37,587 nucleotides of DNA, from IMG/VR virus record IMGVR_UViG_3300048591_000798, positions 1 to 37,587 of that record; one strand, written 5' to 3'. The stretch comes from a virus. The position numbers and the translations under genes were made by a program. The number at the start of each line of letters is the position of its first letter. Position 1 is the stretch's first letter. This document shows positions 1,737 through 37,587 of this stretch, in pieces. The notes under the pieces were generated by a model. The model was not told the origin of the DNA. It worked only from the letters and a program-made list of their open reading frames with translations, and did not search any database.

Positions 1737-1740
1737 TACA

Positions 1741-1833: not shown

Positions 1834-1836
1834 ACC

Positions 1837-2205: not shown

Positions 2206-2217
2206 AAGGTAAAAACT

Positions 2218-3119: not shown

Positions 3120-3298
3120 AATTTGCGCTGAGAACAGAGCCGAGGATATTCATTTGCATCGGGATCGCCGTCTGGGCCTCCACTGGATCATTTCGAAGGT
3201 TCGCTGTTTACGTTCTTGCATATTTTTTAACCATGCTTGTGATAAACGTATTTATCGCATTTATATCCGCAATTAAGGAGATCAAAAATGAGATTTGA
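3116..3298 (+). CDS. 60-aa two-helix membrane protein
   Basis: ATGA coupling to the upstream gene; two hydrophobic stretches. Confidence 0.5.
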   Translation: MKFALRTEPRIFICIGIAVWASTGSFRRFAVYVLAYFLTMLVINVFIAFISAIKEIKNEI

Positions 3299-3611: not shown

Positions 3612-3625
3612 CATTAGAGGTGAAT

Positions 3626-4198
3626 ATGACTGATTTAAACCGTGACTACATGCTCATTATCGACAAATCTGGATCAATGGCCGAGCGCGACTGTCCAGGT
3701 GGAAAAAGCCGATGGGACTATTGCCAAGAGTCTACCTTTGCACTTTGCTCAAAGATGGAAACATTGGACCCTGATGGGATCGACCTTTATGTGTTCTCAT
3801 CGAGCTTCAAGAGGTATGAAAATGTTACTTCTCAGAAAGTTAAAGACATCTTTAAAGAGAACGATCCTAGCGGGGGTACCGCTCTGGATCTTGTGCTTGG
3901 CGACGCTTTTGGTCGTACTAAAGGCCCTACTACCATTGTTGTTGTTACTGATGGTGAGCCTAACGATAAGTCTGCTGTTGCTAAACTCATTACTGCTCAA
4001 TCACAAAAGCTTGAGAAGGATGAAGATCTTGCGATTAGTTTCATTCAAGTGGGAAAAAATGAAGAAGCAAGGTCCTATCTGAAGTCTCTTGACGATGATT
4101 TGAAAGGAGCAAAGTTTGATATTGTCGATACTGTCACTTTTGATGAAATGGAAAACACGAGTTTGACCGAAGTTCTGACTAGTGCTATAACAGACTAA
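3626..4198 (+). CDS. von Willebrand factor A (vWA) domain protein with MIDAS motif, TerY-like
   Basis: DKSGS (DxSxS), GGTALD and VVVTDGEPND motifs; the ATG at 3626 lies 5 nt after GAGG. Confidence 0.8.
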   Translation: MTDLNRDYMLIIDKSGSMAERDCPGGKSRWDYCQESTFALCSKMETLDPDGIDLYVFSSSFKRYENVTSQKVKDIFKENDPSGGTALDLVLGDAFGRTKGPTTIVVVTDGEPNDKSAVAKLITAQSQKLEKDEDLAISFIQVGKNEEARSYLKSLDDDLKGAKFDIVDTVTFDEMENTSLTEVLTSAITD

Positions 4199-4412: not shown

Positions 4413-4466
4413 AAAGCCGAGCACAGAATAGTACCCGATCACTAAACTGAGCTCGGCTTTTGCTTT
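4413..4466. terminator. Hairpin (10-bp stem AAAGCCGAGC/GCTCGGCTTT, 28-nt loop) at the convergence of early (+) and late (-) transcription
   Basis: Stem read directly; followed by TTTTGCTTT on the + strand and T-rich on the - strand; lies between gene ends. Confidence 0.5.
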
Positions 4467-4692
4467 ACTTGGTGAGACCCTTCAGAGCGGAAAATACCAC
4501 TGAAGCAGGGCCAAGTTTCACCATAGCCAAGATCTCGATCACCGCGCCACCTATAAGAACCAAAAGCTCCTTTTTTTCTTCCAGATCCAGTTCTGAAAGC
4601 TCTTTGCCAACAAGGTCATAGTCAACAGACATGAGCCCTAGAATGTCAGATTTGATCATACCTATGAGTTTTTTTGTTTCAGTGATGCCCAT
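4465..4692 (-). CDS. Small protein with C-terminal hydrophobic segment (lysis/membrane candidate)
   Basis: 75-aa ORF, RBS GGGAGAG; last gene of the late operon. Confidence 0.5.
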   Translation of the reverse strand: MGITETKKLIGMIKSDILGLMSVDYDLVGKELSELDLEEKKELLVLIGGAVIEILAMVKLGPASVVFSALKGLTK

Positions 4693-4728
4693 ACCGATCT
4701 CTCCCTTTGAAACCTATAAATTGTGTGT

Positions 4729-4959
4729 TTACTGAATTTTATCACAATTCCGGCATTCTTGAGCAAAATGCTGTTCAAAAAGAGCTGTTTGCACGGCTAA
4801 GATTTTATCAAGTCGAGTGATGGAGTCAGAGAGTGTATTGATACGGCTATTGAGGGTTGTAATGGAACGATTAAACCACGCCCCCAAGGTGAACAAAGTT
4901 GTGGCCGCGCTGGCTGCCCCTGAAAAGATGATTTTTAGTAACTCAGCATCGATCTGCAT
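4729..4959 (-). CDS. Small protein with N-terminal TM helix plus coiled coil (holin/spanin-like candidate)
   Basis: 76-aa ORF, RBS GGGG; IIFSGAASAATTLFTLGAWF hydrophobic stretch. Confidence 0.5.
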   Translation of the reverse strand: MQIDAELLKIIFSGAASAATTLFTLGAWFNRSITTLNSRINTLSDSITRLDKILAVQTALFEQHFAQECRNCDKIQ

Positions 4960-5003
4960 AGACTACCCCTAACGTGAAATGGATAGGGATAGTTTATCAT
5001 CTT

Positions 5004-5213
5004 TTAAATAAGGGTAGACCCTAATGCTTCATAAGGAGAACATGCTTCGTAATCTTTGTTTAAGTCCTTAGTATTAACGACAATTTTGTCGTCTTTGCCC
5101 ACTTTCTTGAGTATCCAAGTCACCACAGAAACACCGCAATTTACACTGACTTTTGGATCTGCTGAATAATACTCATTTGGCACTGTTCTTGAGCGAAAAA
5201 AAACAGAAATCAA
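5004..5213 (-). CDS. Hypothetical protein (69 aa from TTG start); alternative long form 5004..5381
   Basis: AAGGAG 6 nt upstream of TTG at 5213; the upstream part of the track ORF overlaps 5245..5562. Confidence 0.35.
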   Translation of the reverse strand: MISVFFRSRTVPNEYYSADPKVSVNCGVSVVTWILKKVGKDDKIVVNTKDLNKDYEACSPYEALGSTLI

Positions 5214-5244
5214 AGCGTTCTCCTTTTTAATCAAAAAAGTGAGT

Positions 5245-5562
5245 CTAAAACTCGCAAAAAAGTGTGTACCTAAGCCACCTACCCATGCGACAAGACCACT
5301 CAAAAGCTTCCTTGCGAACACAGGTATGTCTTGGCTCACCTGCGAATTCCAAAATAAAGCTGTTTTCTGTCTTGAATTCATAGTTTCCTACGTTGTCCGA
5401 TGGAGTCGGGTTATGCCCAAGATATGACGCTATCCCGATATCTCCCGTTTTACCGACTGGACCCTCAAATTTTGTTGAGCTGTCCCATTGGAAATTCTCA
5501 CAGTAAGTTGCCGCATTTAAATTCGATGCCAATAGTAGCCCAAAAAGCAATATTTTTCTCAT
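5245..5562 (-). CDS. Secreted protein with N-terminal signal peptide
   Basis: MRKILLFGLLLASNLNAA signal-like N-terminus; RBS GAGGAA 5 nt upstream of the ATG. Confidence 0.5.
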   Translation of the reverse strand: MRKILLFGLLLASNLNAATYCENFQWDSSTKFEGPVGKTGDIGIASYLGHNPTPSDNVGNYEFKTENSFILEFAGEPRHTCVRKEAFEWSCRMGRWLRYTLFCEF

Positions 5563-11395: not shown

Positions 11396-11406
11396 TGTTT
11401 CCCCCT

Positions 11407-12552
11407 TTATATGATCCCGCCGCCTTCTTCTGTAGCTTCACGGTATTGTTTTGCCTGTGGTCCTTCGCCCGTTTTGATGTAATGATCAAAGTCCGACTCT
11501 GTCCAGAGATAGCCGTCGCCTGTCCCTTTTCTTCTCCACTGAGAAACCTGTGCTTTTCTCTGCTCGATCTCAGAGTTTGCTTTTGCCCTGTCGATATCAT
11601 CAAGATACTTTTTGCCCCAAGCTTGGTTCTCAGCTCCTTGACGCTGCCGCTCTGCTGCCTCGGCATCCTCTTTTACTTTCTTGTCGTAAGCCTCTTTATC
11701 GGCCTTCTTCTTGGCATCGATAAGTCCGCTGTAAATGCTATTTGTTGTTTTGGCGTTGTTTGTTGCTGCAGTTTGTGCCGCCGACCACTGATCAGAGACG
11801 CTCTTTGCTTGGTTTTTTGCCGCCTCGATTTGTGAGCCGACTTTTTGCTCAGTTCCCTGTAGATAGTTGCCGATTCCCTGCCACTTCTTACTCGCATCTT
11901 CAACAATCTTACCGCCACCGCCGCCGTACTTTGTAATTGCTGTGTCTAAACGACCTACACCGGGGGCCCCTGAACCATACCCATACTTTTGACCCAAAGC
12001 TGTCTGTAGTCCTTCGGTTGTTCCAAGGGTTTTCGCCGAATCGCGAACTTTATCCGCTGAACCTTGAGCCTTTTGATAAGCACCGCTTTTGTCATCTGCG
12101 AAACTTGTCGGGCCTGTGTATGAGGAAGATGGAGATGTCGCACCAAAGGAAACCGTCGGAGCTTCCCCCTTGGTACTTGCATCCTTCTTCGCCGCTTCTG
12201 TAGGGGAAGTGTCGATCATCCATTGGTTGGCCACCGATTGGTTAAATTGTGGCGTTCCCTGCAGAATGTTTTGCCCAGCAATTTGCCCATAAAGATCGGC
12301 GTCCTTTTGGGCATCCATTCCCTGCTTTTCAATATCGCCGATAACATTCGCCCCCATCTCTGCTGAGCTGTTGGGAGACGTGAGATAGTTTACAATGTTA
12401 GTAAAACCGCCCGACTGCTGCTTTTGGGGCGCATTCGGTAGAGCTCCTGTGCTCGACCCACCTGTCATCCCTCCCGAGATATATCCTGTTCCCCCTGATA
12501 CCGGGGTTTCCTTATTCTTGTACTGCTCTTCGTCGTCATTAATGATTGCCAT
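11407..12552 (-). CDS. Virion protein (381 aa), Gly/Ser/Thr-rich N-terminal half
   Basis: ATG at 12552 lies 2 nt after the upstream stop, with GGGG as RBS; the track start at 12570 overlaps the upstream gene. Confidence 0.55.
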   Translation of the reverse strand: MAIINDDEEQYKNKETPVSGGTGYISGGMTGGSSTGALPNAPQKQQSGGFTNIVNYLTSPNSSAEMGANVIGDIEKQGMDAQKDADLYGQIAGQNILQGTPQFNQSVANQWMIDTSPTEAAKKDASTKGEAPTVSFGATSPSSSYTGPTSFADDKSGAYQKAQGSADKVRDSAKTLGTTEGLQTALGQKYGYGSGAPGVGRLDTAITKYGGGGGKIVEDASKKWQGIGNYLQGTEQKVGSQIEAAKNQAKSVSDQWSAAQTAATNNAKTTNSIYSGLIDAKKKADKEAYDKKVKEDAEAAERQRQGAENQAWGKKYLDDIDRAKANSEIEQRKAQVSQWRRKGTGDGYLWTESDFDHYIKTGEGPQAKQYREATEEGGGII

Positions 12553-29162: not shown

Positions 29163-29348
29163 CTAGCGTTTCAGTGTGAGAACAGATTTAAGGTGTGATA
29201 TCGAATCATCGATTGCCTTAAACCTGCTGTCTAATTCGTTCACGTATTTCTTGTGAGAGGTTAAGTGCCACTTCTTAACACGATAAGATGCAACACAGAC
29301 ACAAAATATCACTAAGTCAATCCAACTTTTTTCGCCTTTGCCCAACAT
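29163..29348 (-). CDS. 61-aa single-pass membrane protein with coiled-coil tail
   Basis: Internal ATG of track ORF 29163..29540; WIDLVIFCVCVASY hydrophobic stretch. Confidence 0.4.
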   Translation of the reverse strand: MLGKGEKSWIDLVIFCVCVASYRVKKWHLTSHKKYVNELDSRFKAIDDSISHLKSVLTLKR

Positions 29349-29400
29349 GTTAATTGTTGATGCAAATAAAGCGAAGTTTGTGAGGCTTAGTACACCACTG

Positions 29401-29661
29401 TTAAGCAGGTTTAGCTTCGATCCCGTACTTGTCAGGGTTTGCCCAATACTTGCCCACGCTAATCTTAAACTTTTCTTCAATGATTGGCCTCGTGTTGACA
29501 TCTGAAACCTCGGTCGTAAGCACATTGTAATTTTCATCAAGGTTTAGCTTGATAAATACCCATCCTCCAGCCGCCCTTGCTGTAGCAAAAGCTGGGATGA
29601 TTTTCTCTGGCTTTTCGAGCTTAGGTTTCGTGCTGCTTTTATTATACACCGTCTTGCTCAT
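29401..29661 (-). CDS. Hypothetical protein (86 aa)
   Basis: The ATG at 29661 is preceded by AAGGG; the longer track ORF overlaps the upstream gene. Confidence 0.5.
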   Translation of the reverse strand: MSKTVYNKSSTKPKLEKPEKIIPAFATARAAGGWVFIKLNLDENYNVLTTEVSDVNTRPIIEEKFKISVGKYWANPDKYGIEAKPA

Positions 29662-30097
29662 TTTCGACCCTTTCATGTTCCTTGAATGACTGTTCAAGAT
29701 CATCCAGTTCGGGATCTGCTTTGTCCTCTTCCTTGGGCTGCTTTTCTTTGTCCTTTTCGGCCTGAACCTTGGCGAAAAATTCCATGGTGTCTACGGCCTG
29801 GGAAACTAGGCTTGCGTGGGTAGCTGGAAACAGCCCTTCCATAAGCAAAGCGCCGATGCCCATGAAGACCTGAGTTGAGCCCTCTGGGTACTCGTCCAGG
29901 GTCGCGTATTCGTCCAGGTGGGCAATAGCACTTTTGATCAGTTTAGCATGGGTGCCGGGGTATGTGCCTTGCATGAGTAGCTGAGCTATGCTTTTGAGTA
30001 GGTCATAAGCCTTGATCGGCTGTGGCTCTTTTTTGACAATTTTGACTTTATAATCGTTGGGTTTTTTGTGCCTCGCACGTGCCTTTTTTGCTTGCAA
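29642..30097 (-). CDS. Hypothetical protein with internal tandem duplication; first gene of the late operon, TTG start
   Basis: GGAGG 7 nt upstream of TTG; LLMQGTYPGTHAKLIKSAIAHL and LLMEGLFPATHASLVSQAVDTM repeat. Confidence 0.55.
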   Translation of the reverse strand: MQAKKARARHKKPNDYKVKIVKKEPQPIKAYDLLKSIAQLLMQGTYPGTHAKLIKSAIAHLDEYATLDEYPEGSTQVFMGIGALLMEGLFPATHASLVSQAVDTMEFFAKVQAEKDKEKQPKEEDKADPELDDLEQSFKEHERVENEQDGV

Positions 30098-30154
30098 AAT
30101 ATGACCTCCATGTCATGGGCTCGTATTCGGTTTTTTGCATGTATGCCTCGACCA

Positions 30155-30184
30155 TTTATAACACGCTAAAATTGTTACTGCCAA
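30155..30184 (-). promoter_or_regulatory. Sigma70-like promoter TTGGCA-N18-TATAAA for the leftward late operon
   Basis: Read on the - strand in the divergent intergenic region. Confidence 0.4.
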
Positions 30185-30203
30185 ATTAAATAGCACTCGA
30201 CTG

Positions 30204-30232
30204 TTGACAAGCCTCACTAGAGCTGCTAGTAA
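30204..30232 (+). promoter_or_regulatory. Sigma70-like promoter TTGACA-N17-TAGTAA(T) for the rightward early block; spacer contains palindrome ACTAG-N5-CTAGT
   Basis: Exact -35, 17-nt spacer; 55 nt upstream of the 30288 ATG. Confidence 0.5.
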
Positions 30233-30287: not shown

Positions 30288-30710
30288 ATGAGCACAATTT
30301 TAAACCTTAAAAACCTTGTAAACGAAAGTGTTAGAGCATACGGACTTTTCAGAATGTGCTTAGATATTTCTGACAAATCAAATTTGGAAATTTATAGGGC
30401 TATTGACAGAGATAGATTCGATAACGCAACAAAGTATGTAACAAAGCTAACTATTGCTTATATTCACGAGGGAATGGAACCTGAAATTGTTCACATTTTC
30501 GATCAAGAAAACCCTACACTGTCTGACCTTGAAACATATCTAAAAGAAAAGCTTACAGATGATCTTATGAAAGAGGTTGGCGTCGAGGTTTCTGTGGTCG
30601 GTAATATTGATCAAACAAGAATAGGTAAAAACACAGTTGAAGGTCTATTAAACTATCCTCATTTCATGACTGAAAATGAAAGAGAACGACAGTTTTTAAC
30701 ATCTTATTGA
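30288..30710 (+). CDS. Hypothetical early protein (140 aa, acidic)
   Basis: RBS GGAG; first gene after the early promoter. Confidence 0.6.
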   Translation: MSTILNLKNLVNESVRAYGLFRMCLDISDKSNLEIYRAIDRDRFDNATKYVTKLTIAYIHEGMEPEIVHIFDQENPTLSDLETYLKEKLTDDLMKEVGVEVSVVGNIDQTRIGKNTVEGLLNYPHFMTENERERQFLTSY

Positions 30711-30721
30711 GAGAGGAAAAA

Positions 30722-30976
30722 ATGCCCCAAATAACGACTAAAAAAGGACGAGTTTTCACATGGGTTTCCTACGTCGGAAAACCAGTTGTGATCGAGTCCC
30801 AAAACCGCAACAGAAGAACATGCTTCAAGAACGTTTTTAGCTGCTGTGACGGCAAGAATTATGTGTTCTATCAAGGGTTCTCATATGAGCATATCGGATC
30901 TTGCCCTATGAGCGGAAAAATGATGTTTAAGAAGTCAGAAAACCAATACGAATTTGACGATAAAAAGGTGGGATAA
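30722..30976 (+). CDS. Hypothetical protein (84 aa)
   Basis: ATG preceded by GAGAGGAAAAA. Confidence 0.55.
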   Translation: MPQITTKKGRVFTWVSYVGKPVVIESQNRNRRTCFKNVFSCCDGKNYVFYQGFSYEHIGSCPMSGKMMFKKSENQYEFDDKKVG

Positions 30977-30979
30977 TAC

Positions 30980-31168
30980 ATGTACAAAATAAAGCTTTAT
31001 GAGCGCAATGTTTACGGCAAAATTATGATGTATTTTAGAGAACAAAACGAGGCTGAAATATTCAAGATCTTGACAGGACAAAAGACTATCAGCATGAAGC
31101 AAGTTAAGGCCATGGAATGCTTCGGCGTGACGTTTGAAATTGAGAAGCTGCCGGAGAATGTAAAGTGA
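30980..31168 (+). CDS. Hypothetical protein (62 aa)
   Basis: ORF in the packed early operon. Confidence 0.5.
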   Translation: MYKIKLYERNVYGKIMMYFREQNEAEIFKILTGQKTISMKQVKAMECFGVTFEIEKLPENVK

Positions 31169-31476
31169 CATCGGTAAAGCTTACAGATGAAGAGCAGTTC
31201 ATTCTTGAATGCATAGCTGAGGATATTCATCAAGAAGATAGGAGAATTACTCCAAATGAATACATTTTCGCATGCAGAATAGATGGGATATTCGGCGATA
31301 TAGATGCAGATAATATTTTAGTTTCTTTAGTTGAAAAAGGGTTCATAACATCTCGTTTCAATGATTATTATGCTTGTATAGAAGTTGCCATTACAGAGAA
31401 AGGGTTTTCACACCTTGAAATAAATTACCAAAAAGAAGAGCCCTATCAGATTGGTGAAGATGATGAGTTAGAATAG
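31165..31476 (+). CDS. Very acidic small protein (103 aa), winged-helix-like
   Basis: GTG start overlapping the upstream TGA (GTGA), GGAG RBS; many Asp/Glu. Confidence 0.5.
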   Translation: MTSVKLTDEEQFILECIAEDIHQEDRRITPNEYIFACRIDGIFGDIDADNILVSLVEKGFITSRFNDYYACIEVAITEKGFSHLEINYQKEEPYQIGEDDELE

Positions 31477-31496
31477 CAATGAGAAGGAGTAAACGA

Positions 31497-31691
31497 ATGA
31501 AAGCCCGGCTTGAGTTTGAGATGCCTAAATGTTGCTTCAACTGCCCTTGTTGTTGGGAAGGTGCTCTATGCTGCAAAGCTGTGAAAGAAGACTATAGAAA
31601 AGACAGTTTAGGCTTTAAGCCGTTTGAATATAAATTTGACATATGGGAAGGAAAGCCCGACTGGTGCCCGCTGCAGGAGGTTGAGAAGTGA
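31497..31691 (+). CDS. Cys-rich small protein (CCFNCPCC...CC...WCPL)
   Basis: The ATG at 31497 lies 7 nt after AAGGAG. Confidence 0.55.
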   Translation: MKARLEFEMPKCCFNCPCCWEGALCCKAVKEDYRKDSLGFKPFEYKFDIWEGKPDWCPLQEVEK

Positions 31692-31990
31692 AGTATTCAA
31701 TGCTGGACAAAGACAAGAATGTAATCGAGATATGCAGAGAGTGTTATCTTAAAAATCATGAAAAAATTTGGTCCGAAAGGATATTAGCATGCGATTCAAT
31801 TGATGATCAATGCTTTGTAAGCACCATAGTCCTTCCTTTTAATCATGGCATTCATGAAGACCCACTGTTCTTCGAAACAATGATATTCAATGGCCCTCAT
31901 GACGGGTTTATGGATCGCTATGCAACATACGATGAAGCCGTTGCAGGACACGCTAAAGCTGTAGCTATGGCCAAGGGCGAACAAATTTGA
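31688..31990 (+). CDS. Hypothetical phage protein (VSTIVLP...FETMIF...RY.TY.EA..GH pattern)
   Basis: GTG start with GGAGG RBS; pattern recalled from common phage proteins of unknown function. Confidence 0.55.
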   Translation: MKYSMLDKDKNVIEICRECYLKNHEKIWSERILACDSIDDQCFVSTIVLPFNHGIHEDPLFFETMIFNGPHDGFMDRYATYDEAVAGHAKAVAMAKGEQI

Positions 31991-32029
31991 TTATAATATC
32001 CTCATTACCAACAAATTTTGGGGGTGTAA

Positions 32030-32224
32030 ATGAGGTTTACCGAGCTCAATATTGTCCTTCGTGCTACTAAGCTTTGCGATCTTCTGAAACAATTGAATAT
32101 TGATCTTAAACATGATAGAGCACTTGACATAATTTCTCGTCTTGAGGGGTACAAAGATTACGCCGAAATGTACGAGGTTTTGAAGGAGGAAAACAAGGGG
32201 TGGGAGAGGAGAAGACGGTTTTGA
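32030..32224 (+). CDS. Hypothetical protein (64 aa)
   Basis: RBS GGGGTG. Confidence 0.5.
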   Translation: MRFTELNIVLRATKLCDLLKQLNIDLKHDRALDIISRLEGYKDYAEMYEVLKEENKGWERRRRF

Positions 32225-32538
32225 TAAGTGAGAAGGTTGATAAATGCGCCCAGCACCTCATAAGCTGGTACGGTTTTAAGAACCAACTTCAAAAAGCTGC
32301 AGAAGAGTCGAAAGAATATGAATCAGCTTTGGATGATCTTATTGTACTTCCACTGATCGACTGTGTTGTTTGTGAGAAAAAATGTGATGAATTTCGCGAA
32401 GCTGTTGAGAGCTTAATTGATGAAACTGCAGACGCGATCTTTACAGCCTACCAAGTCGCAAAAATGATAGGACTTGAAAAGGTCATAGAAAGAATAGAAT
32501 ACAAAGCTAATCGTGCTGTTGAGCGAATAAACGCTTAA
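32200..32538 (+). CDS. MazG-like all-alpha nucleotide pyrophosphohydrolase candidate
   Basis: KAAEESKEYESAL ... IDETADAIFTAYQVAKMIG resembles the EExxE / E-x-aD motif pair of the MazG family. Confidence 0.35.
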   Translation: MGEEKTVLISEKVDKCAQHLISWYGFKNQLQKAAEESKEYESALDDLIVLPLIDCVVCEKKCDEFREAVESLIDETADAIFTAYQVAKMIGLEKVIERIEYKANRAVERINA

Positions 32539-32558
32539 TATATTTTGAAAGGACTAAG

Positions 32559-32792
32559 ATGATTGCAAGAACCGTTAATAATCCGATTGAATTAGTTGAT
32601 GCATGTATTCAGATGTTAATGTTTCATAAAATGAATATGATTCAGACATATAATGAAAATACAGGTAAGCAAAAGAAGAGTAAAGAACCCGCAAAAAAAA
32701 AGCAACGAAGAAAAAATAAGAAGACAACGGTAAGTGCTGCGAAAAAAAGAGGAAGACCGGGCAGGAAACCAGGACCAAAACCAGCGATTTAA
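32559..32792 (+). CDS. Basic protein with AT-hook (KKRGRPGRKPGPKP)
   Basis: RGRP core in a Lys/Arg-rich C-terminus; RBS AAAGGA. Confidence 0.55.
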   Translation: MIARTVNNPIELVDACIQMLMFHKMNMIQTYNENTGKQKKSKEPAKKKQRRKNKKTTVSAAKKRGRPGRKPGPKPAI

Positions 32793-32793
32793 T

Positions 32794-33102
32794 TTAGTTT
32801 TTGAGATACCCCTTTTCAGCCAAGATCTTGACCAAATCTCTTTTTTTATAGCTGACATCACAAAGCCAACGGCCAAAGCTATCTTGCTTATGAGGGGTAA
32901 GCTCAACTCTGTTACCTCCGATCAGAGAGGAAACATACTCTTTCGCTTCTATTCCTTGCTCTTTATCACAACCGTGCACTTCCCATGCATCACACCCAAA
33001 AACGCGAACAGTGACGTGAATAGACACGTTGAAGCCAAGTTCTACCTGGGCCTCAAAAGTATCCCCGTCGATCACCCTGGTGACTTTTGAATCATGGTGC
33101 AT
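32794..33102 (-). CDS. Staphylococcal-nuclease (SNase/thermonuclease) fold nuclease
   Basis: VIDGDTFE, RVFGCDAWE (compare R-x-x-G-I-D-A-P-E) and FGRWLCDV (compare YGR-x-L) motifs. Confidence 0.7.
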   Translation of the reverse strand: MHHDSKVTRVIDGDTFEAQVELGFNVSIHVTVRVFGCDAWEVHGCDKEQGIEAKEYVSSLIGGNRVELTPHKQDSFGRWLCDVSYKKRDLVKILAEKGYLKN

Positions 33103-33904
33103 ACCAACATTTCGGCCTATTACTACAAGTTTTTGCTTTTTTATCTAATGGGATAATCTTATCATCCCATGGTTTGTCACACAAGATACCAGCGATCATC
33201 GTATCAAGTCTGCACTGCGGGGTAGGATGCCCCTGGAATGTCTTTTTCACATCATTCTGCTCGGGAGTCGTTGGGTCTGTTTCTTTTATCCATGGGCGGT
33301 ACACAACTGCCAAGAAATCTGATAAACTTTTAGCCCCCATCAAAGTCAACATGCACACGTCTTTATCGTATTTTTCATCGAAATATTTTTCGCACAGATC
33401 GGACTCTATTCTGAGTTGATTGATCAGTTTTCTTTTTTTTATGGTTTTACCAAAAATCTTTCTGGCACAAACATGGGCTGCGTAGTAGTCGGCTTGCCCC
33501 TCTGTCGAGCTCTTGAGATAGTCCTTTATCGGGTAGCCCCCAAGCAGATGCCCGATCTCATGACAAAGAGCCATTGTAAAGCCCTCCTTTGTGATCTGTA
33601 CTTTCCTCGCCAAACCGCCGTGTACCTCGATCTTCCAGTTTCGCGCATACTGACTGTCAAACTGATAGACATACATATTGGAGTCTTTACTATCCCATTT
33701 GCGCTCAAACCAGAAGTTTACCCCAATGGCTTTGAAGATCGGCTGATAGGTATCATTGACGGATTGGATCAAGTCGTGAAACTGCTTTTCTGTGATATTT
33801 GAGAGTCCCGGATTATCGTCTGGAACATCGTTCGGCGGCATGTCTGCAAATATCATTGTGGAGACGAGAAAAGCGATGAGCAAAGTGACCATTTTTTGAC
33901 CCAT
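33092..33904 (-). CDS. Secreted Cys-rich zinc metalloprotease (HEIGH)
   Basis: N-terminal signal-like VTLLIAFLVSTMIFA; HExxH with Asp 9 residues after the second His; at least 8 Cys. Confidence 0.65.
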   Translation of the reverse strand: MGQKMVTLLIAFLVSTMIFADMPPNDVPDDNPGLSNITEKQFHDLIQSVNDTYQPIFKAIGVNFWFERKWDSKDSNMYVYQFDSQYARNWKIEVHGGLARKVQITKEGFTMALCHEIGHLLGGYPIKDYLKSSTEGQADYYAAHVCARKIFGKTIKKRKLINQLRIESDLCEKYFDEKYDKDVCMLTLMGAKSLSDFLAVVYRPWIKETDPTTPEQNDVKKTFQGHPTPQCRLDTMIAGILCDKPWDDKIIPLDKKAKTCSNRPKCWYAP

Positions 33905-33937
33905 AAAAAAACCCCCGATAAGCTGTATCAGGGGTTT
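33905..33937 (-). terminator. Intrinsic terminator between the cysteine protease and metalloprotease genes
   Basis: - strand: CCCC-T-GATA-CAGCT-TATC-G-GGGG followed by TTTTTTT, directly abutting the ATG at 33904. Confidence 0.55.
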
Positions 33938-33984
33938 AGTGTAGCATGGAGTAATGCCTTAGTGAAATTCGACTTGCTGCATAC

Positions 33985-35181
33985 CTATTGGAGTTCTTTA
34001 CCAAGCTTACCATGAGCCTTAATTGCTGGCAATACATTGACCGTTGTTCCATGAAAAGCGGTGCCACATTTTGTAGTAGCAAACACGGTCAGCCTCTTGG
34101 TGATTCTTGGCACATAATTGATCTGTGCCGTGAGTGGCTTACCGTTGTTATCAAAAGAGGGATCTGCGACCCAAGTATAAGTGTGTCCGGGACGCGCCTT
34201 TGTACCCATCACAATCCTCTGTCCTGCCCTTACACTGATGACATCGGGATACCCGGTGTAGGCAAAAGGCTGTGGCTGGCATCCTGGATCTGGCTTTGGA
34301 TCTGGGCCTGGAGGCGGTGGAGGGGGTGGGTTTGGCTCAGAGTCTTCGGCCACAACGTAGTTCGCCCAAGCGCCGATGCCATTAGCTTTAAACGAGATAT
34401 GGCCCCAGCCATTGATTCCCCAGCCAGTACCCCAGCTATTGCGCATGATCCAATATCCATCGCCGTTATTGTCATTCCAGCCTACTATGTTTACTGCATG
34501 ATTGAGATCCCTGAAACCTGTGTCTCTGAAGATGCCACCACGATAATTTTGTAGGGCGTCATCTACAGCTATACCAACTCCCAATGGACCGTAGGTCATC
34601 AAGGCTCGTTTCAGCCCATCAACATCATTTCCAGCATTGTCGCCACCAGGCAGATAAGCCCAGTTTTTGATCGCCCATTTGTAGCTTAATCCCGATTTAC
34701 ACTGGGAATCAGTTCCGGTATAAGGGTAATCGATCTCTAAAATTGATCCCTTCGGTTTCATCATGTAGTTGTACGCGAAGAACCCTCCGTTGCAACCCCA
34801 GCCTTCATTGTTACACGAAACCAAATACTGCTCTGAAAGATCTTCTTTCCCACCCTTAAAAATTCTTCGCACATCTTCAAAAGTAGCAACCGAGCTGTAA
34901 CTCCAACAAGAGCCGCACCCGCCTTGGTTGCGAATTGGCATCAATTCGGCCTTTGTTCTCCAATCGAAGGCTGATGGAAGGGTTTCCCCAACACGAAGCT
35001 TTGGGGCCTCTTTTACGTTCGTAGGTTTGAAGTTTGGGGGGATCTTAAGACCTGTTGCGTAGGGTCCAGCACCGCCACCCGATAAGACTGGATCTGCGTT
35101 AACAACGACACTGTTTGACGCCTCGTGCGAGCAAGCTGCGAAAGCCGCTATGAGCGCAAGGGGCAAAAAGAACTTCTTCAT
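33985..35181 (-). CDS. Lipoprotein papain-family (C1) cysteine protease with Pro-rich linker and ~100-aa C-terminal domain
   Basis: MKKFFLPLALIAAFAAC lipobox-like signal. Catalytic set NQGGCGSCWSYS (Gln, Cys), LNHAVNIVGW (His), NSWG (Asn). The ATG overlaps the amidase stop as ATGA, with GGAGGA RBS. Confidence 0.8.
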   Translation of the reverse strand: MKKFFLPLALIAAFAACSHEASNSVVVNADPVLSGGGAGPYATGLKIPPNFKPTNVKEAPKLRVGETLPSAFDWRTKAELMPIRNQGGCGSCWSYSSVATFEDVRRIFKGGKEDLSEQYLVSCNNEGWGCNGGFFAYNYMMKPKGSILEIDYPYTGTDSQCKSGLSYKWAIKNWAYLPGGDNAGNDVDGLKRALMTYGPLGVGIAVDDALQNYRGGIFRDTGFRDLNHAVNIVGWNDNNGDGYWIMRNSWGTGWGINGWGHISFKANGIGAWANYVVAEDSEPNPPPPPPPGPDPKPDPGCQPQPFAYTGYPDVISVRAGQRIVMGTKARPGHTYTWVADPSFDNNGKPLTAQINYVPRITKRLTVFATTKCGTAFHGTTVNVLPAIKAHGKLGKELQ

Positions 35182-35648
35182 CGATATTCCTCCGTATTGT
35201 ATTTCTCTTTGGCAGCATACCATAACTGGGTGTTTTCATCATACTTCCACATTTTGATTAAATCGAAATTAGGGCAAGTTTTGTAAATATTGTAGTAGTT
35301 ATGCGGCAAGACGTTCTTGCCGAGGATACGGTACCTGTCCATGAAGCGTTTCACGACGCCCCAGAGGGCCACAAATTGCTCTTCCGTGAACTTTTTATTG
35401 CCCGAGACACATATGCCTATGGAGTTTTTATTATGGCCCTGACAGTGAGCGCCAACCTTGTCCAGTGGGCGACCGTTGAACACCCTGCCGCGCTTGTCGA
35501 TAAAGATGTGATAGCCAATGTCCGACCAGCCTTTATCAAGATGCATTTTCCTGATCGCTTCGACGTTATCCAGATCTGGATTATCTGTTGCGCTGCAGTG
35601 GATAATAATCTCTTTTATGTCCGAAAGTTCACGGTTTGCTACCACCAT
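35178..35648 (-). CDS. N-acetylmuramoyl-L-alanine amidase, T7-lysozyme type (endolysin)
   Basis: IIIHCSAT...GWSDIGYHIFI...GAHCQGHNKNSIGICVSGN...CPNFD closely parallels T7 gp3.5. Confidence 0.85.
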   Translation of the reverse strand: MVVANRELSDIKEIIIHCSATDNPDLDNVEAIRKMHLDKGWSDIGYHIFIDKRGRVFNGRPLDKVGAHCQGHNKNSIGICVSGNKKFTEEQFVALWGVVKRFMDRYRILGKNVLPHNYYNIYKTCPNFDLIKMWKYDENTQLWYAAKEKYNTEEYR

Positions 35649-35719
35649 TCAAATCGATCTCCCAGAGGTCACAAATCTGCGCTTTTTCGCGCTCACAAAA
35701 CATGAAATATTTGCACTTG

Positions 35720-35959
35720 TCACAGCTTTTGAAGTTCTGCAATTTCAAACTCTCCCATAACTTCTTCAAGTGGATCAAAAGCCTCTGCTGCGACTGCTTT
35801 TGCGTAGCATTTTACGCGCTTTTTTGAGTCCTTAATCTCTCGATTATAACCCGCAACAAGTTCCTTTTTTTCCTCTGTTTGTTTCTCGATATGATTTGTG
35901 ATTTGGACGATCTTTTTACTCAAAAATTCGATCTGTTTTTGATTCATTTTTCTCACCAT
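35720..35959 (-). CDS. Coiled-coil small protein (79 aa), first gene of the hydrolase island
   Basis: ORF with alternative ATG five codons in; no TM segment. Confidence 0.5.
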   Translation of the reverse strand: MVRKMNQKQIEFLSKKIVQITNHIEKQTEEKKELVAGYNREIKDSKKRVKCYAKAVAAEAFDPLEEVMGEFEIAELQKL

Positions 35960-35983
35960 GGTTAGCTATTTTTTTATATGATG

Positions 35984-36012
35984 AGAGTAGCGAGTTTTTG
36001 GTAGGGGTGCAA
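35984..36012 (-). promoter_or_regulatory. Promoter candidate TTGCAC-N17-TACTCT for the hydrolase island
   Basis: Read on the - strand; a TATAAA box also lies at 35973..35978. Confidence 0.3.
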
Positions 36013-36017
36013 TGCTT

Positions 36018-36055
36018 AAAAAAATAGCAGTTCAACATGATGACTTGAACTGCTA
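36018..36055 (-). terminator. Strong leftward intrinsic terminator (11-bp stem, 9-nt loop, T7)
   Basis: TAGCAGTTCAA/TTGAACTGCTA arms; - strand followed by TTTTTTT. Confidence 0.6.
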
Positions 36056-36202
36056 ATCAACCCAAACAGACGCCACGAATTCAAAAGAATTTTTGACAGT
36101 TGTTTTTGGCACCATAACACAACAAATTTTTATTGACTAGAGGTGCATATTGAGAGTACCAAGAAGCGGTAGTAATTTTCTCTTTCCTCTGAAAATAAAA
36201 AA

Positions 36203-36233
36203 GCACCGCTCTCAATTTGCGATGCCTTTTTTT
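36203..36233. terminator. Hairpin flanked by an A-run and T7 in the rep leader (attenuator or bidirectional terminator)
   Basis: GCACCGC/GCGATGC (one mismatch), 9-nt loop, then C-TTTTTTT; preceded by AAAATAAAAAA. Confidence 0.4.
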
Positions 36234-36373
36234 AGCCCAGTTGCCTCGACAAAGTGACTTGGGCCAGTCGTTAGAGTGATTTTTTGTAACTAACCATGTC
36301 TACACCCCCAGCACGACGCTTGAAACATAGCTTTTCGTGCTGGCGATTGCAAGGCCATTTTAAAGGGAAAGCT

Positions 36374-37240
36374 ATGTCTATTGTTAAAACTACAAATTCT
36401 ACCCATGAAAAAAAATCAGTAAAAAAATCAGATATCTTCGACCCTTTCGCTGGTGGTAGGTTTTTGATGGCTATTGCTGAAAATCAAAACCTAACTGCCG
36501 ATGAGACGCTGATTTTATTGATTATAGGGTCTCATCAAGACTTCAATGATTTCTTGCACTCAAAACGGTACATGACCATTGAGAGAATCGCTTTTTTAGC
36601 TAAACGCACAGAAAGATGGATCAAGAAATGTCTAAGGTCATTAGAGCAAAAAGGCTACTTGATCACTGAAGAGTGTTTTAGAAAAAGCGGTAAGCAGTTA
36701 GCTAACAACTATTCGTTATCAGACATAATTTTTACAGACGCGCACCAAAATTGGCTGTCGAGTAGGGGTGAATACAGTTCACCCCACAAAGTGACGGAGG
36801 GTGAATACAGTTCACCCCCAGGGGTGAATACAGTTCACCCCCAGATCCCTAATAAAGAGGTCCCTAATATTAAAAAAGGTAAATCTAAAGATTTACCTAA
36901 AAAGGGAATTACTCAGAATAAAAAGTGGGAATTAAGGCAATGCCAGGACATGGGGATCGATGTTTTTACTCCCGACGCCGATCAGCAGGGAAGAATTCCT
37001 AACCCTGGGAGGAGAGCTATCGAGCTTCATATGTCTGAGATGCACCAAAGATACGGCTACCAAGCCGTAAAGCTCTTTATTGATGATCTCAAGGATCAAG
37101 GTCTAAGGGGTAAAGCTCTTTTCAACAGGGGCAAGATTGATAATGCTGTGAAAGCCGCTTTTGAGTTTCTGCAGCAAAAAAACTCTGAGGCAATATCTGA
37201 GTCCTCTCAAAGAATTCAAGACCAACCAATACCATTTTAA
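36374..37240 (+). CDS. Replication initiator (winged-helix N-terminal domain, lambda O-like organisation)
   Basis: The ATG at 36374 follows AAAGGGAAA. The N-terminal half shows an HTH pattern (TIERIAFLAKRTERWIKKCLRSLEQKGYLI). Iterons and an AT-rich tract lie in the linker. Confidence 0.65.
   Translation: MSIVKTTNSTHEKKSVKKSDIFDPFAGGRFLMAIAENQNLTADETLILLIIGSHQDFNDFLHSKRYMTIERIAFLAKRTERWIKKCLRSLEQKGYLITEECFRKSGKQLANNYSLSDIIFTDAHQNWLSSRGEYSSPHKVTEGEYSSPPGVNTVHPQIPNKEVPNIKKGKSKDLPKKGITQNKKWELRQCQDMGIDVFTPDADQQGRIPNPGRRAIELHMSEMHQRYGYQAVKLFIDDLKDQGLRGKALFNRGKIDNAVKAAFEFLQQKNSEAISESSQRIQDQPIPF
36765..36842. repeat. Three iterons GGGGTGAATACAGTTCACCCC, each an inverted repeat GGTGAA-N5-TTCACC
   Basis: Copies at 36765..36785, 36799..36819 and 36821..36842, read directly. 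Confidence 0.85.
36765..36935. other. Putative origin of replication (iterons plus adjacent AT-rich tract with TCCCTAATA x2)
   Basis: Iterons are followed by an AT-rich ~90 nt; TCCCTAATA at 36846 and 36861; the layout parallels lambda ori inside gene O. Confidence 0.55.
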
Positions 37241-37295: not shown

Positions 37296-37587
37296 ATGCG
37301 TCAATTAAGTCAACTTGAGTACAATTTAGCTTTATCGATTGTTACAAAATTTTATCGTGACATTGAGTTATTTACAAATTTAGAAGCAGCAATTGGCATG
37401 AGCTGGGAGGAGTCTAGGTTTTGGGAAGCTAACCTAGATTTGGTATCAGAACTGCTCTTATTCCTTGGAATTGATAAAGAAAAGTTCGTCACTACATTGT
37501 TGATCGGATATAACCATGATAACGGTAAACGATCTCATGGAAAGGCTAAAGACTTTCTTGACGATCTTCTAAGTCGTTTAAATATCA
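37296..37587 (+). CDS. Hypothetical protein (102 aa when the circle is closed; continues at 128..144)
   Basis: ATG 6 nt after GGAG; open to the window end; completed by nt 128..144. Confidence 0.55.
   Translation, partial: MRQLSQLEYNLALSIVTKFYRDIELFTNLEAAIGMSWEESRFWEANLDLVSELLLFLGIDKEKFVTTLLIGYNHDNGKRSHGKAKDFLDDLLSRLNI
37461..37587. repeat. Terminal direct repeat copy 2 (identical to 1..127)
   Basis: Read directly; lies inside the ORF that starts at 37296. Confidence 0.95.

Follow-up and report, generated by a model that had tools for sequence, protein, structure and literature searches.

An uncultivated phage genome carries a leftward operon in which a T7-lysozyme-type amidase and a small SNase-fold nuclease are encoded together with two proteases bearing export signals, and this gene order recurs in other phages. 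Our best reading, held tentatively at a probability of about 40%, is that the operon provides envelope proteolysis preparing or assisting lysis. The window analyzed here, a stretch of 37,587 nucleotides, has a 127-bp terminal direct repeat, and its assembly is therefore circular, with a genome length of 37,460 bp. The phage belongs to an SU10-type podovirus lineage whose hosts are probably Bdellovibrionota, a host clade that we infer from the distribution of the HExxH protease family described below and from the nearest cultured TerL, found in a phage of a Silvanigrella (Oligoflexia).

Organization and proteins of the leftward operon

The ORF list contains all five of the minus-strand genes that had been described for the island, in the order p79, T7-lysozyme-type amidase, lipoprotein C1 protease, signal-peptide HExxH Zn-protease, and SNase. 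Rightward blocks lie on both sides as described (30288-32792 and 36296 onward), the second of which runs on across the circular junction into 870-4198. The GC and GC3 values of the island equal the genome average, and the island is native to the genome, not foreign DNA. No integrase was found among the scanned ORFs of the complete 37.5-kb genome, nor was a partition gene or a recognizable repressor. The missing integrase and the typical composition suggest that the island genes probably serve lytic growth, and they disfavor the secreted morons that the preliminary description had offered as an alternative.

The first gene (35720..35959, minus strand) encodes p79, a small hydrophilic protein of 79 amino acids that matches no Pfam or PHROG family and whose position is kept in relatives. 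Homologs of 76-86 amino acids lie between the resolvase and amidase genes in loci L003, L004, L089, L090, L095, and L096. Hydropathy analysis detected no hydrophobic or transmembrane segment in p79, and a holin function was ruled out on these grounds. The second gene (35178..35648, minus strand) encodes an N-acetylmuramoyl-L-alanine amidase of the T7 lysozyme type, as had been proposed (Amidase_2, PF01510, E 3e-17; phrog_822, E 1.6e-40). The best solved structure is T7 lysozyme itself (1ARO/1LBA, E 3.4e-20), with which the HCSAT, GYH, and K-x-CP-x-F motifs align. No signal peptide or SAR segment is present at the amidase N-terminus, here or in relatives, and the enzyme is predicted to be cytoplasmic. 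Pfam, PHROG, and further scans recognized no other peptidoglycan hydrolase in the genome, and the amidase is its sole recognizable endolysin candidate. The amidase stop codon and the start codon of the C1 protease overlap as ATGA, an arrangement through which the two genes are predicted to be translationally coupled.

The third gene (33985..35181, minus strand) encodes the expected lipoprotein of the papain family (C1A), a 398-amino-acid protein matching Peptidase_C1 (PF00112, E 1.5e-51) with an N-terminus, MKKFFLPLALIAAFAAC, that fits a lipobox. The signal and lipobox (residues 1-17, nt 35131-35181) are followed by a tether of about 50 amino acids with a conserved TGL..P..FKP motif, a catalytic domain (residues 68-267, nt 34381-34980), a Pro-rich linker (nt 34285-34347), and a C-terminal β-sandwich of Ig/PKD-like type with a conserved Cys pair (residues 300-398, nt 33988-34284). 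The protein matches ficin (E 4.7e-41); in this alignment the mature domain begins at residue 68 and no I29 prodomain is present. Residues Q86, C92, H228, and N248 are invariant among 20 clade members, and the lipobox Cys is kept across the phage clade. The AF2 model of the C-terminal domain reached a pLDDT of 91.9, and Foldseek returned Ig/PKD-like matches with TM scores of ~0.55-0.6. Many of the viral C1 matches in IMG/VR come from large eukaryotic viruses; the clade of the window protein is found mostly on phage-sized contigs and has its own lipoprotein architecture, with the Pro-rich linker and the Ig/PKD-like C-terminal domain.

The fourth gene (33092..33904, minus strand) encodes a putative Sec-secreted, Cys-rich Zn-metalloprotease of 270 amino acids with an HExxH...ExxAD signature. 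The HEIGH motif, an N-terminal hydrophobic signal, and eight Cys residues bear out the preliminary assignment. The family alignment shows no variation at H115, H119, E135, or most of the Cys positions, and every member carries an N-terminal signal. The conserved Cys residues of this protein and of the C1 protease would fit an oxidizing compartment. No Pfam family scored above threshold and no significant fold match was found in the PDB; weak Peptidase_M48 matches occur in 17 of 30 family members (best E 7e-5, below the cutoff), and the window protein itself scores 12.5 bits against a cutoff of 20.3. Its AF2 model (pLDDT 86.6) contains a β-sheet, an HExxH helix, and a Glu helix, and the protein appears to be a distant M48-like gluzincin. 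Cellular relatives number at least 528, nearly all from Bdellovibrionota, where the genes often form tandem arrays of 2-5 with several paralogs per genome. Identity between phage and cellular copies is low (30-36%), pointing to an old capture and a gene maintained since. In five of the closest, phage-type relatives, about one-fifth of that group, the catalytic Glu is replaced by Q, A, or D, perhaps suggesting that catalysis is not always needed.

The last gene (32794..33102, minus strand), which overlaps the HExxH gene by 11 nt, encodes a 102-amino-acid SNase-fold nuclease, confirmed by PF00565 (26.2 bits, cutoff 21) and phrog_452 (E 1.6e-19). Comparison of N-termini revealed no signal peptide here or across the phage group. 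The nuclease thus appears to be cytoplasmic, as does the amidase, making the previously suggested role of a secreted, DNA-degrading enzyme of corpse digestion unlikely. The description of the island as a set of exported hydrolases therefore fits only two of the four enzymes, the proteases with their export signals; the amidase and the SNase carry none, here or in relatives. Rather, the operon has two parts: cytoplasmic functions resembling those of T7 class II (amidase, SNase, and, in relatives, a RuvC-like resolvase) and two proteases with export signals.

On its minus strand, the intergenic control region between the island and a divergent replication-initiator-like gene (35960..36295) forms strong structure that includes two terminator-like hairpins; the RNA fold has a z-score of -5.1, and none of 100 shuffles folded equally well. 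A consensus scan identified no sigma-70-like site on the minus strand of this region. The promoter candidate at 35984..36012 consequently did not hold up in the scan; about 6 of 12 consensus positions match by eye. Intrinsic terminators had also been proposed, and here one part stood: a strong terminator- or attenuator-like, GC-rich hairpin lies in the gap between the C1 and HExxH genes (33909..33937, minus strand), with a U-tract reaching the HExxH start codon. The terminator scan gave it 12 pairs, and it folds at -25.9 kcal/mol (z -2.6). No terminator was found at the 3' end of the island; there the stop codons of SNase and the convergent gene abut. All 11 phages examined have a corresponding hairpin between C1 and HExxH, its stem differing in sequence, and two expression units are possible.

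Gene order in other phages and lysis genes elsewhere

A search for the same gene order in related phages was successful. The order RuvC-like resolvase, p79, amidase, C1, HExxH, SNase was found on at least eight independent phage-sized metagenomic contigs other than the window, with 45-63% amino acid identity, far above chance expectation. The RuvC-like Holliday-junction resolvase heads the operon in these relatives; the window phage lacks it. The amidase gene is followed immediately by C1 at 10 loci on 9 distinct contigs, counts that include the window and L008. Three phages (L007, L091, and L092) have C1, HExxH, and SNase together with the amidase elsewhere, HExxH stands alone in L006, and C1 stands alone in five loci; the amidase link to the protease trio is thus not obligatory. 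The neighbors of the trio in L007 are of accessory or counter-defense type: a glycosyltransferase and an Acb2/Tad1-like gene. None of 80 cellular HExxH loci in Bdellovibrionota has a C1, SNase, or amidase gene adjacent, and the combination is phage-specific. Neither the cultured-phage database nor the literature searched contains a report of this arrangement.

The preliminary description had found no Rz/Rz1-type spanin pair in the genome, and a genome-wide lipobox scan agrees: the lipobox of the C1 protease is the only one in a real gene, so an Rz1-type o-spanin is not recognizable. No holin is encoded within the island operon. A conserved set of small envelope proteins is present at the end of the late operon (4465..5562, minus strand), about 6 kb from the island operon across the circular junction. 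By hydropathy, these are sp105 (5245-5562), with a signal peptide; tm76 (4729-4959), with an N-terminal transmembrane segment and a helical tail; and tm75 (4465-4692), with a C-terminal transmembrane segment. None matches a PHROG or Pfam family, and homologs cluster in L007, L089, and L092. This set is a candidate holin or late lysis cassette, and the island is therefore probably not the whole lysis system.

Comparison with known systems

The amidase resembles T7 gp3.5 lysozyme not only in being most similar to it among solved structures but also in lacking a signal peptide. The T7 class II neighborhood includes gp3 endonuclease I and gp6 exonuclease; likewise, in the relatives the gene directly before the amidase specifies a Holliday-junction resolvase, and their operon, which is not a late one, includes a nuclease gene. 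The operon diverges from a replication gene, and together with the resolvase at its head in relatives this suggests middle rather than late expression. By analogy, the setting resembles the middle, DNA-metabolism neighborhood of gp3/gp3.5, not a late lysis cassette. Exported proteases are present in the cluster here and absent from that of T7, and the resolvase of the relatives is RuvC-like rather than endonuclease-I-like. T7 lysozyme also regulates the T7 phage RNA polymerase; no phage RNA polymerase was recognized among the scanned ORFs of the window phage.

Baculovirus V-CATH, which acts with a chitinase, is likewise a virus-encoded C1A protease; after replication it degrades host structures and frees progeny. 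As a eukaryotic-type enzyme, V-CATH has a full propeptide but lacks a lipoprotein anchor, whereas in the phage protein the I29 prodomain is missing and a lipobox, an Ig-like domain, and a Pro-rich linker are present. The HExxH protein shares with periplasmic or outer-membrane M48 proteases of Gram-negative bacteria, namely BepA, YcaL, and LoiP of E. coli, the HExxH motif, a downstream Glu, and, by prediction, export to the periplasm. It differs in scoring below the M48 cutoff, in lacking a TPR domain, in being Cys-rich, and in belonging to a family almost confined to Bdellovibrionota and their phages. At the Bam/Lpt machines, BepA, YcaL, and LoiP act on proteins of the outer membrane, and this analogy suggests such proteins as one possible substrate class. 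T5 Llp is also a phage-encoded outer-membrane lipoprotein, made before lysis and acting at the cell surface. Llp is a small, non-enzymatic blocker of receptor binding, in contrast to the predicted protease here, and sequence similarity between the two would not be expected.

Phages whose hosts have special envelopes can supplement the endolysin with factors against a further mechanical layer, a precedent set by mycobacteriophage LysB and corynephage LysZ (bioRxiv 10.1101/2025.06.24.661397). LysB acts as a lipid esterase and LysZ is a membrane protein, each encoded inside a holin-endolysin cassette, whereas the present operon supplies proteases as its extra factors, has no holin next to it, and belongs to phages of Gram-negative hosts. 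Spanins (lambda Rz/Rz1, T1 gp11) offer another parallel, an outer-membrane lipoprotein encoded with lysis genes, and both spanins and the disruptin phiKT gp28 disrupt the outer membrane, which is step three in the lysis of Gram-negative cells. A further preprint describes the disruptin as a spanin substitute, puts phages without spanins at ~15%, and for that reason leads one to expect alternatives (bioRxiv 10.1101/515445). Spanins and disruptin are small and non-enzymatic; the lipoprotein here, a candidate for such a function, is a 398-amino-acid protease without an inner-membrane partner.

Possible roles of the operon

We infer the localization, timing, and substrates of the proteases and the amidase, and their effect on lysis, as follows. 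The C1 and HExxH proteases would reach the envelope via Sec and Lol, independently of any holin, and there cleave host envelope proteins, with catalytically dead variants binding instead. They might target a surface layer, proteins of the outer membrane, or the tethers that link this membrane to the peptidoglycan. A holin, probably from 4465-4959, would then admit the amidase to the peptidoglycan, and with the outer layer loosened beforehand the cell could burst and free virions without a spanin. The nuclease would act on DNA inside the cell, in host DNA breakdown or DNA processing, not in envelope demolition. The module of envelope demolition proposed earlier thus survives in part. It is favored by the conserved, phage-specific module, the amidase as sole recognizable peptidoglycan hydrolase, the ATGA coupling, the amidase-C1 adjacency at 10 loci, the lack of a recognizable spanin, and the invariant C1 catalytic residues, and opposed by the cytoplasmic nuclease and amidase, the lack of a holin in the operon, the non-late setting, the optional amidase link, the possible division into two expression units, the accessory or counter-defense neighbors in L007, and the occasional loss of the catalytic Glu.

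Several of these last points would suit receptor destruction or superinfection exclusion, which we regard as less probable but as a serious alternative. Here the C1 lipoprotein, anchored in the outer membrane, and the Zn-protease in the periplasm would cleave or mask the phage receptor or other surface structures (pili or outer-membrane proteins, for instance) soon after infection, blocking secondary infection and preventing loss of progeny on debris, a role like that of T5 Llp achieved through proteolysis. From its position, the operon would be expressed early or in the middle phase; exclusion is the classical function of phage lipoproteins (T5 Llp, TP-J34 Ltp), and C1 is the sole phage lipoprotein of this genome; its modeled Ig/PKD-like domain and long Pro-rich linker would suit binding to surface proteins; HExxH variants that have lost the catalytic Glu might mask a target simply by binding it; and the amidase link is optional. 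Exclusion does not explain, however, why C1 so often adjoins the amidase gene and is coupled to this endolysin through ATGA, it would not require a linked nuclease and a second, different protease, and no proteolysis-based exclusion system was found in the literature searched.

Another alternative to be taken seriously, though rather unlikely, is that the operon is a mosaic without common function, a T7-class-II-type set of amidase, nuclease, and, in relatives, resolvase joined by independently acquired accessory proteases that manipulate host physiology. In such a mosaic the HExxH protease would be captured from the secreted-protease arsenal of the host clade, and one possibility is a boost during infection to the prey digestion or nutrient supply of a host that may be predatory. 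The expansion of the family in Bdellovibrionota (tandem arrays, paralogs), a further phage whose HExxH gene stands by itself amid small early genes, the differing module composition, the conserved terminator-like hairpin dividing the operon after C1, and a resolvase-amidase order mirroring the gp3 then gp3.5 of the T7 map are consistent with this. Yet the C1-HExxH-SNase linkage persists on different phage backbones, as one would not expect of accessory genes without a relationship, the C1 clade, distinct in its lipoprotein architecture, lies mostly on contigs of phage size, and the HExxH capture appears old, with the gene maintained (30-36% identity to cellular copies). Highly improbable, finally, are lysogenic-conversion morons, prophage-expressed secreted proteases that benefit the lysogen, for example, in virulence or competition. 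Exported proteases are common conversion factors, the internal hairpin could allow independent expression, and one relative has ParB_N and Mom genes nearby, but integrase, partition, and recognizable repressor genes were not found among the scanned ORFs, island GC and GC3 are genome-typical, the genes sit within a conserved operon with endolysin and resolvase, and among 80 cellular HExxH loci of Bdellovibrionota not one adjoins a C1, SNase, or amidase gene. With envelope proteolysis in preparation or support of lysis as the preferred reading, the operon may represent an undescribed phage route of attack on host envelope proteins.

Enzymes Encoded by the Island

The preliminary description had placed five minus-strand ORFs between positions 32794 and 35959, and all five were recovered in our analysis. 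The gene at 35178–35648 (−) encodes a protein that matches Amidase_2 (PF01510, E 3e-17, 63.6 bits vs a cut-off of 26) and phrog_822 (E 1.6e-40). Its closest solved structure is T7 lysozyme (1ARO/1LBA, E 3.4e-20), with which its HCSAT, GYH, and K-x-CP-x-F motifs align, and the Zn ligands (His, His, Cys) and catalytic Tyr and Lys are present as in T7 lysozyme. The second of these His residues is displaced by 1–2 positions in the pairwise alignment, yet it is conserved in all relatives. On these sequence features, we assign the protein to the Amidase_2 family as a T7-lysozyme-type member. No phage RNA polymerase, the enzyme that T7 lysozyme binds and inhibits, was recognized among the scanned ORFs. 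The 79-aa protein p79 (35720–35959, −) is hydrophilic, and no transmembrane protein is encoded anywhere in the island. Neither p79 nor the 270-aa protein with an HEIGH motif, hereafter the HExxH protein, matched a Pfam family above threshold.

The gene at 33985–35181 (−) encodes a papain-family protease, C1, with a strong match to Peptidase_C1 (PF00112, E 1.5e-51, 176 bits vs a cut-off of 20.7). Plant papain-like enzymes such as ficin are its closest solved structures (E 4.7e-41); the alignment opens at phage residue 68 and residue 1 of the mature enzyme, and all 20 proteins compared in a family alignment keep the catalytic Gln86, Cys92, His228, and Asn248. No Pfam match to an I29 propeptide was found in C1. 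Residues 42–67 alone, with a conserved TGL..P..FKP motif, can be aligned with the final stretch of the propeptide of procathepsin K, and we speculate that this segment might be a short tethered inhibitor. The N-terminus of C1, MKKFFLPLALIAAFAAC, matches the lipobox pattern in a rule-based prediction and is the only such signal found in a real gene by a genome-wide lipobox scan; three of the other matches are ORFs that run antisense to real genes, and the fourth is a 34-aa intergenic ORF with a GTG start. The latter, at 30113–30217 (−) upstream of the late operon, carries the lipobox-like MRLVNSRVLFNLAVTILAC and is probably spurious. The lipobox Cys, mostly with Ser next to it, is conserved in the 14 aligned proteins (of 20) that are closest to C1 of the window, while the more distant relatives in this alignment have plain signal peptides. 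A Pro-rich linker leads into a C-terminal domain of 99 residues, two of them invariant Cys, which was modeled (pLDDT 91.9) as an Ig/PKD-like β-sandwich (TM about 0.55–0.6). Judged by this model, the domain is of a generic kind that serves secreted bacterial proteases for binding or as a spacer, and its fold names no ligand. The architecture of approximately 400 aa is common to >100 clusters, many of them on 31–46 kb contigs. Overall, the sequence identifies C1 as a C1A peptidase with a predicted lipoprotein anchor and without the usual propeptide.

The HExxH protein starts with a classical signal peptide and contains eight Cys residues. In its family, His115, His119, Glu135 (within EGQAD), and most of the Cys residues are invariant, and Glu116 occupies the catalytic position of the window protein. 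An AlphaFold model (pLDDT 86.6) contains a three-stranded sheet, the HExxH helix (106–121), and a Glu-carrying helix (135–157), a predicted layout that is that of a zincin/gluzincin. The score against Peptidase_M48 (PF01435) was 12.5 bits, below the 20.3 cut-off, and 17 of 30 family members likewise gave sub-threshold matches (best E 7e-5). A fold search of the PDB returned no match at E ≤ 0.001, its best-ranked entries being uninformative, and a profile of the family alignment found nothing among PDB sequences. Matches in BFVD were weak (E 0.006 and above) and mostly to zincin-type peptidases, SprT, and IrrE. Because the protein falls below the M48 threshold and has no significant link to a solved structure, we call it a distant M48-like gluzincin rather than an M48 member, the likeness being that of the sub-threshold Pfam matches and the motifs.

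The HExxH family comprises >2,700 relatives, the closest of which are on 30–49 kb contigs. A scan of the genomes of 185,579 species identified at least 528 cellular relatives (29–36% identity), nearly all in Bdellovibrionota (Oligoflexales, Oligoflexus tunisiensis, Pseudobacteriovorax, Bacteriovoracaceae, Halobacteriovoraceae, Pseudobdellovibrionaceae, and Silvanigrellaceae). Cellular homologues often occur in tandem arrays of 2–5 genes with several paralogues per genome (loci L035, L044, L025, L058, L080, and other Bdellovibrionota loci); the arrays in Bacteriovoracaceae and their kin are a lineage-specific expansion of an uncharacterized secreted protease family. The catalytic Glu, intact in the window copy, is replaced by Gln, Ala, or Asp in 5 of the 120 closest relatives, and all five of these are within the 23 best matches, largely on phage-sized contigs. 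The Glu-less copies (P0003; P0004, at 4714–5520 of contig L002; P0006, at 6001–6834 of contig L004; P0018; and P0023) keep the His ligands and most of the Cys residues; in the L004 copy, the Asp of ExxAD is also changed, to Trp. These proteins may be pseudo-enzymes or substrate traps. Their existence indicates that catalysis is dispensable in some phages, in which binding may then matter.

The gene at 32794–33102 (−) encodes a nuclease that is, by score, a member of the SNase family (PF00565, 26.2 bits vs a cut-off of 21; phrog_452, "endonuclease", E 1.6e-19). Its DGDT, R-x(4)-D-x-W-E, and FGR motifs are conserved in 11 phage copies and were matched, by eye only, with the Ca-binding and catalytic residues Asp21, Asp40, Arg35, Glu43, and Arg87 of the S. 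aureus nuclease; a search of PDB sequences gave no match at E 0.01. Both the SNase and the amidase lack a signal peptide or a hydrophobic N-terminus, in the window as in eleven relatives. The earlier label of "exported hydrolases" thus holds for the two proteases, which carry signals, and not for these two enzymes. Because the SNase is predicted to be cytoplasmic, it most probably acts on DNA within the cell, as T7 gp3 and gp6 do. We rejected a secreted-nuclease reading on the lack of a signal peptide, and with it the proposed digestion of the host corpse by such a nuclease loses its support.

Conservation and Layout of the Operon

ORFs were called on a set of fetched loci, comprising metagenomic phage contigs and cellular genomes, and searched with the window proteins. 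The same gene order, which the preliminary description had suggested seeking in related phages, was found in multiple phage-sized contigs. A divergent replication gene followed by genes for a RuvC-like resolvase, p79, amidase, C1, HExxH, and SNase is the order in IMG/VR contig L001/L002 and in L003, L004, L089, L090, L094, and L095, although our searches picked up no p79 in L001/L002 or L094 and no SNase in L095. Contig L096 has the module order without HExxH. The first operon gene in the relatives encodes a Holliday-junction resolvase (phrog_1770, E 1.4e-15), a gene that the window phage has lost. In L007, L091 (with two HExxH copies), and L092, the genes for C1, HExxH, and SNase are together without an adjoining amidase gene; L007 and L092 carry one at another site, and none was seen in L091. 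Smaller subsets also occur: resolvase, amidase, and C1 only (L008), HExxH alone among small genes upstream of terminase (L006), and C1 alone (five more distant loci).

No gene for C1, SNase, or amidase was found within 5 kb of 80 cellular HExxH genes, and the HExxH gene of Pseudobacteriovorax antillogorgiicola is an ordinary chromosomal singleton. The GC and GC3 of the island equal the genome average. Taken together, the synteny among phages, the absence of a cellular counterpart, and the native composition indicate that the combination was built and kept by phages and is not a recent import. Recent horizontal acquisition was rejected on the match in composition. The module is conserved across an uncultivated phage lineage, and it links an endolysin gene to two proteases predicted to be directed to the envelope.

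Insertions around the module vary between relatives. In L007, a glycosyltransferase gene and an Acb2/Tad1-like (anti-CBASS/Thoeris sponge) gene follow SNase (10540–11875). An ORF between HExxH and SNase in L089 (9115–9777) resembles, by eye only, an HNH/AP2-type homing endonuclease.

The island is flanked by rightward gene blocks on both sides. The amidase stop and C1 start codons overlap as ATGA, with a GGAGGA motif upstream, and the HExxH and SNase genes overlap by 11 nt. A promoter candidate previously proposed at 35984–36012 was not recovered by a consensus scan. As for the intrinsic terminators ascribed to the island, one strong terminator-like hairpin is indeed present, at 33909–33937, but it is internal; the 3′ end of the island abuts the stop codon of a convergent gene and has no hairpin. 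The internal hairpin lies in the C1–HExxH spacer, where a GC-rich hairpin is found in all 11 phages compared (the window, L002–L004, L007, L089–L092, L094, and L095). Its stem sequence varies between phages, and a U-tract usually comes next and runs into the HExxH AUG. Its appearance is that of a conserved element for termination, attenuation, or translational control. Resolvase, p79, amidase, and C1 would then form one expression unit, and HExxH and SNase a second, read-through-dependent one.

The divergent intergenic region at 35955–36300 (−) is unusually structured (z −5.1) and contains two terminator-like hairpins upstream of the first gene of the island, one of them flanked by an A-run and a T-run. 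A similar T-rich leader with TAACTAACCATG (TAGCTAACCATG before p79) is present at 843–873, 36269–36299, and 35960–35975, preceding the first genes of three transcription units (RecT-like, Rep-like, and the island), and the units may share it as a signal for translation initiation or regulation. No known RNA family was found within the window by Rfam.

Phage Type, Probable Host, and Other Candidate Lysis Genes

An exact 127-bp direct repeat is located at 1–127 and 37461–37587. On this evidence, the window either represents a complete genome of 37,460 bp that was assembled as a circle or is a contig carrying a short terminal repeat. In a circularly assembled genome, to which the end repeat points, the rightward block from 36296 continues into 870–4198. 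Within a replication-initiator-like gene, three copies of a partly palindromic 23-nt unit (GGGTGAATACAGTTCACCCC...) at 36766–36844 look like iterons and suggest a likely origin of replication. The late genes, all leftward between about 4.5 and 30 kb, include those for the large terminase, portal, SU10-type major capsid protein, and adaptor; the capsid protein and adaptor mark the phage as a podovirus built on the SU10 structural plan. Among the scanned ORFs of the window, none was recognized as an integrase or partition gene. A 989-aa protein of the virion block (5572–8541, −) has an HEHVH motif near its C-terminus and matched no Pfam or PHROG family; this region may represent a zincin-like domain carried by a large virion or ejection protein. 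Relatives of this protein, sought as a means of reaching the late-operon ends of other phages, were not found.

The island DNA had no match among 50,697 cultured-phage records, the HExxH protein had none among cultured phages, and C1 had only five distant matches there, in unannotated gut contigs. These searches indicate that the module is absent from cultured phages. The nearest cultured terminase (33.5% identical, E 1e-67) is from a phage of Silvanigrella aquatica (Oligoflexia). This similarity and the distribution of the HExxH family suggest that the host is probably a member of Bdellovibrionota, an assignment from gene sharing that is short of proof. To our knowledge, almost no tailed phages are known for this phylum of predatory bacteria.

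Lysis by phages of Gram-negative bacteria is understood to involve a holin, an endolysin, and a spanin. The island does not resemble a canonical lysis cassette of this type, as no holin gene adjoins the endolysin gene and no spanin is apparent. The earlier report that an Rz/Rz1-type spanin could not be recognized agrees with our genome-wide lipobox scan, in which neither a spanin pair nor a unimolecular spanin was found. A reading of C1 itself as a unimolecular spanin was rejected because it has no C-terminal transmembrane segment.

The best candidates for a holin/lysis cassette in this phage group are three small genes at the end of the late operon, encoding sp105 (5245–5562, −), a secreted 105-aa Cys-containing protein with a signal peptide; tm76 (4729–4959, −), which has an N-terminal transmembrane segment and whose helical tail ends in CxxC; and tm75 (4465–4692, −), with a C-terminal transmembrane segment. 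Homologues are clustered in L007 (12089–13797), L089 (1927–2383), and L092 (9933–11648), and the tm genes overlap. Their position recalls T7, in which the holin and spanins are likewise encoded in a late part of the genome. Although the topology of tm76 is like that of an i-spanin, the protein is just 76 aa long and is without a lipoprotein partner. PHROG and Pfam scans returned nothing for p79, tm75, tm76, sp105, or other small membrane ORFs. Just upstream of the terminase genes, an ORF near 29163–29400 (−) encodes two hydrophobic stretches and a tail that is helical and charged, and its layout is similar to that of an 83-aa ORF in the corresponding position of L002 (7522–7773). It is a second holin-like candidate, and its start codon in the window is uncertain owing to an overlap with a 100-aa ORF (29401–29703).

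Possible Roles of the Two Proteases

In the reading we propose, a T7-class-II-like cytoplasmic set (resolvase, amidase, and nuclease) shares the operon with two proteases that would reach the periplasm and outer membrane via the host Sec and Lol pathways. There they would act on envelope proteins; a holin would then free the amidase, and the outer layer would fail without a spanin. The sequence data directly show the protein identities, export signals, and catalytic residues, along with gene coupling, synteny, and how the families are distributed; timing, localization, and substrates are all features that we infer. We favor this envelope proteolysis, preparing or assisting lysis, with a probability of about 0.4, on account of the coupling and adjacency of the amidase and C1 genes, the status of C1 as the sole lipoprotein, the absence of spanins, and a likely lytic lifestyle. 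The envelope-demolition idea of the preliminary description would survive for the two proteases alone. Within it, C1, with or without the M48-like protease, could be an enzymatic replacement for the spanin that cuts outer-membrane-to-wall tethers or proteins that give the outer layer its strength, a narrower claim that we consider doubtful.

Several observations count against a part in lysis. The operon is not in a late position, and catalytically dead HExxH variants exist; if the proteases served in proteolytic receptor destruction or superinfection exclusion, this would account for expression early in infection, for the anchoring of C1 as a lipoprotein, and for why dead variants are tolerated. 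That explanation leaves the link to the endolysin unexplained, and we regard it as possible but tentative. The separability of C1, HExxH, and SNase from the amidase and the accessory neighbors in L007 (the glycosyltransferase and Acb2/Tad1-like genes) also count against lysis assistance. The operon could instead be a mosaic in which the proteases are unrelated accessory genes, perhaps feeding the secreted-hydrolase biology of the host clade; we hold this to be rather unlikely. Lysogenic-conversion morons, akin to the secreted morons offered earlier as an alternative, are very improbable: GC and GC3 match the genome, no promoter was found, and no close relative lacks the module; only the internal hairpin fits. 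A role as virion-maturation proteases was rejected, as both proteins have export signals and lie outside the structural block.

Literature searches on the involvement of papain-like or lipoprotein proteases of phages in lysis or exclusion, on Bdellovibrio and Silvanigrella phages, and on protease-based outer-membrane disruption did not turn up a module of this kind. In the literature and cultured phage genomes searched, no phage operon with this set of genes is described. Functional analogues include LysB and LysZ as extra lysis factors (bioRxiv 10.1101/2025.06.24.661397) and spanins and disruptin for the outer-membrane step (bioRxiv 10.1101/515445); the latter source puts phages without spanins at about 15%. 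Baculovirus V-CATH, the periplasmic M48 proteases BepA, YcaL, and LoiP, and T5 Llp are further functional analogues.

The proteins are small, separable, and testable through heterologous expression, and the C1 and HExxH clades provide a sequence handle for recognizing phages of this host group in metagenomes. If exclusion is the correct explanation, the operon would exemplify receptor destruction by proteolysis. Were the proteases instead lysis factors, proteolysis would join the phage lysis repertoire, and their substrates would reveal load-bearing envelope proteins of Bdellovibrionota. Enzymatic replacement of the spanin, if true, would be a fourth solution to outer-membrane lysis after two-component spanins, unimolecular spanins, and disruptin, specific to Bdellovibrionota phages.
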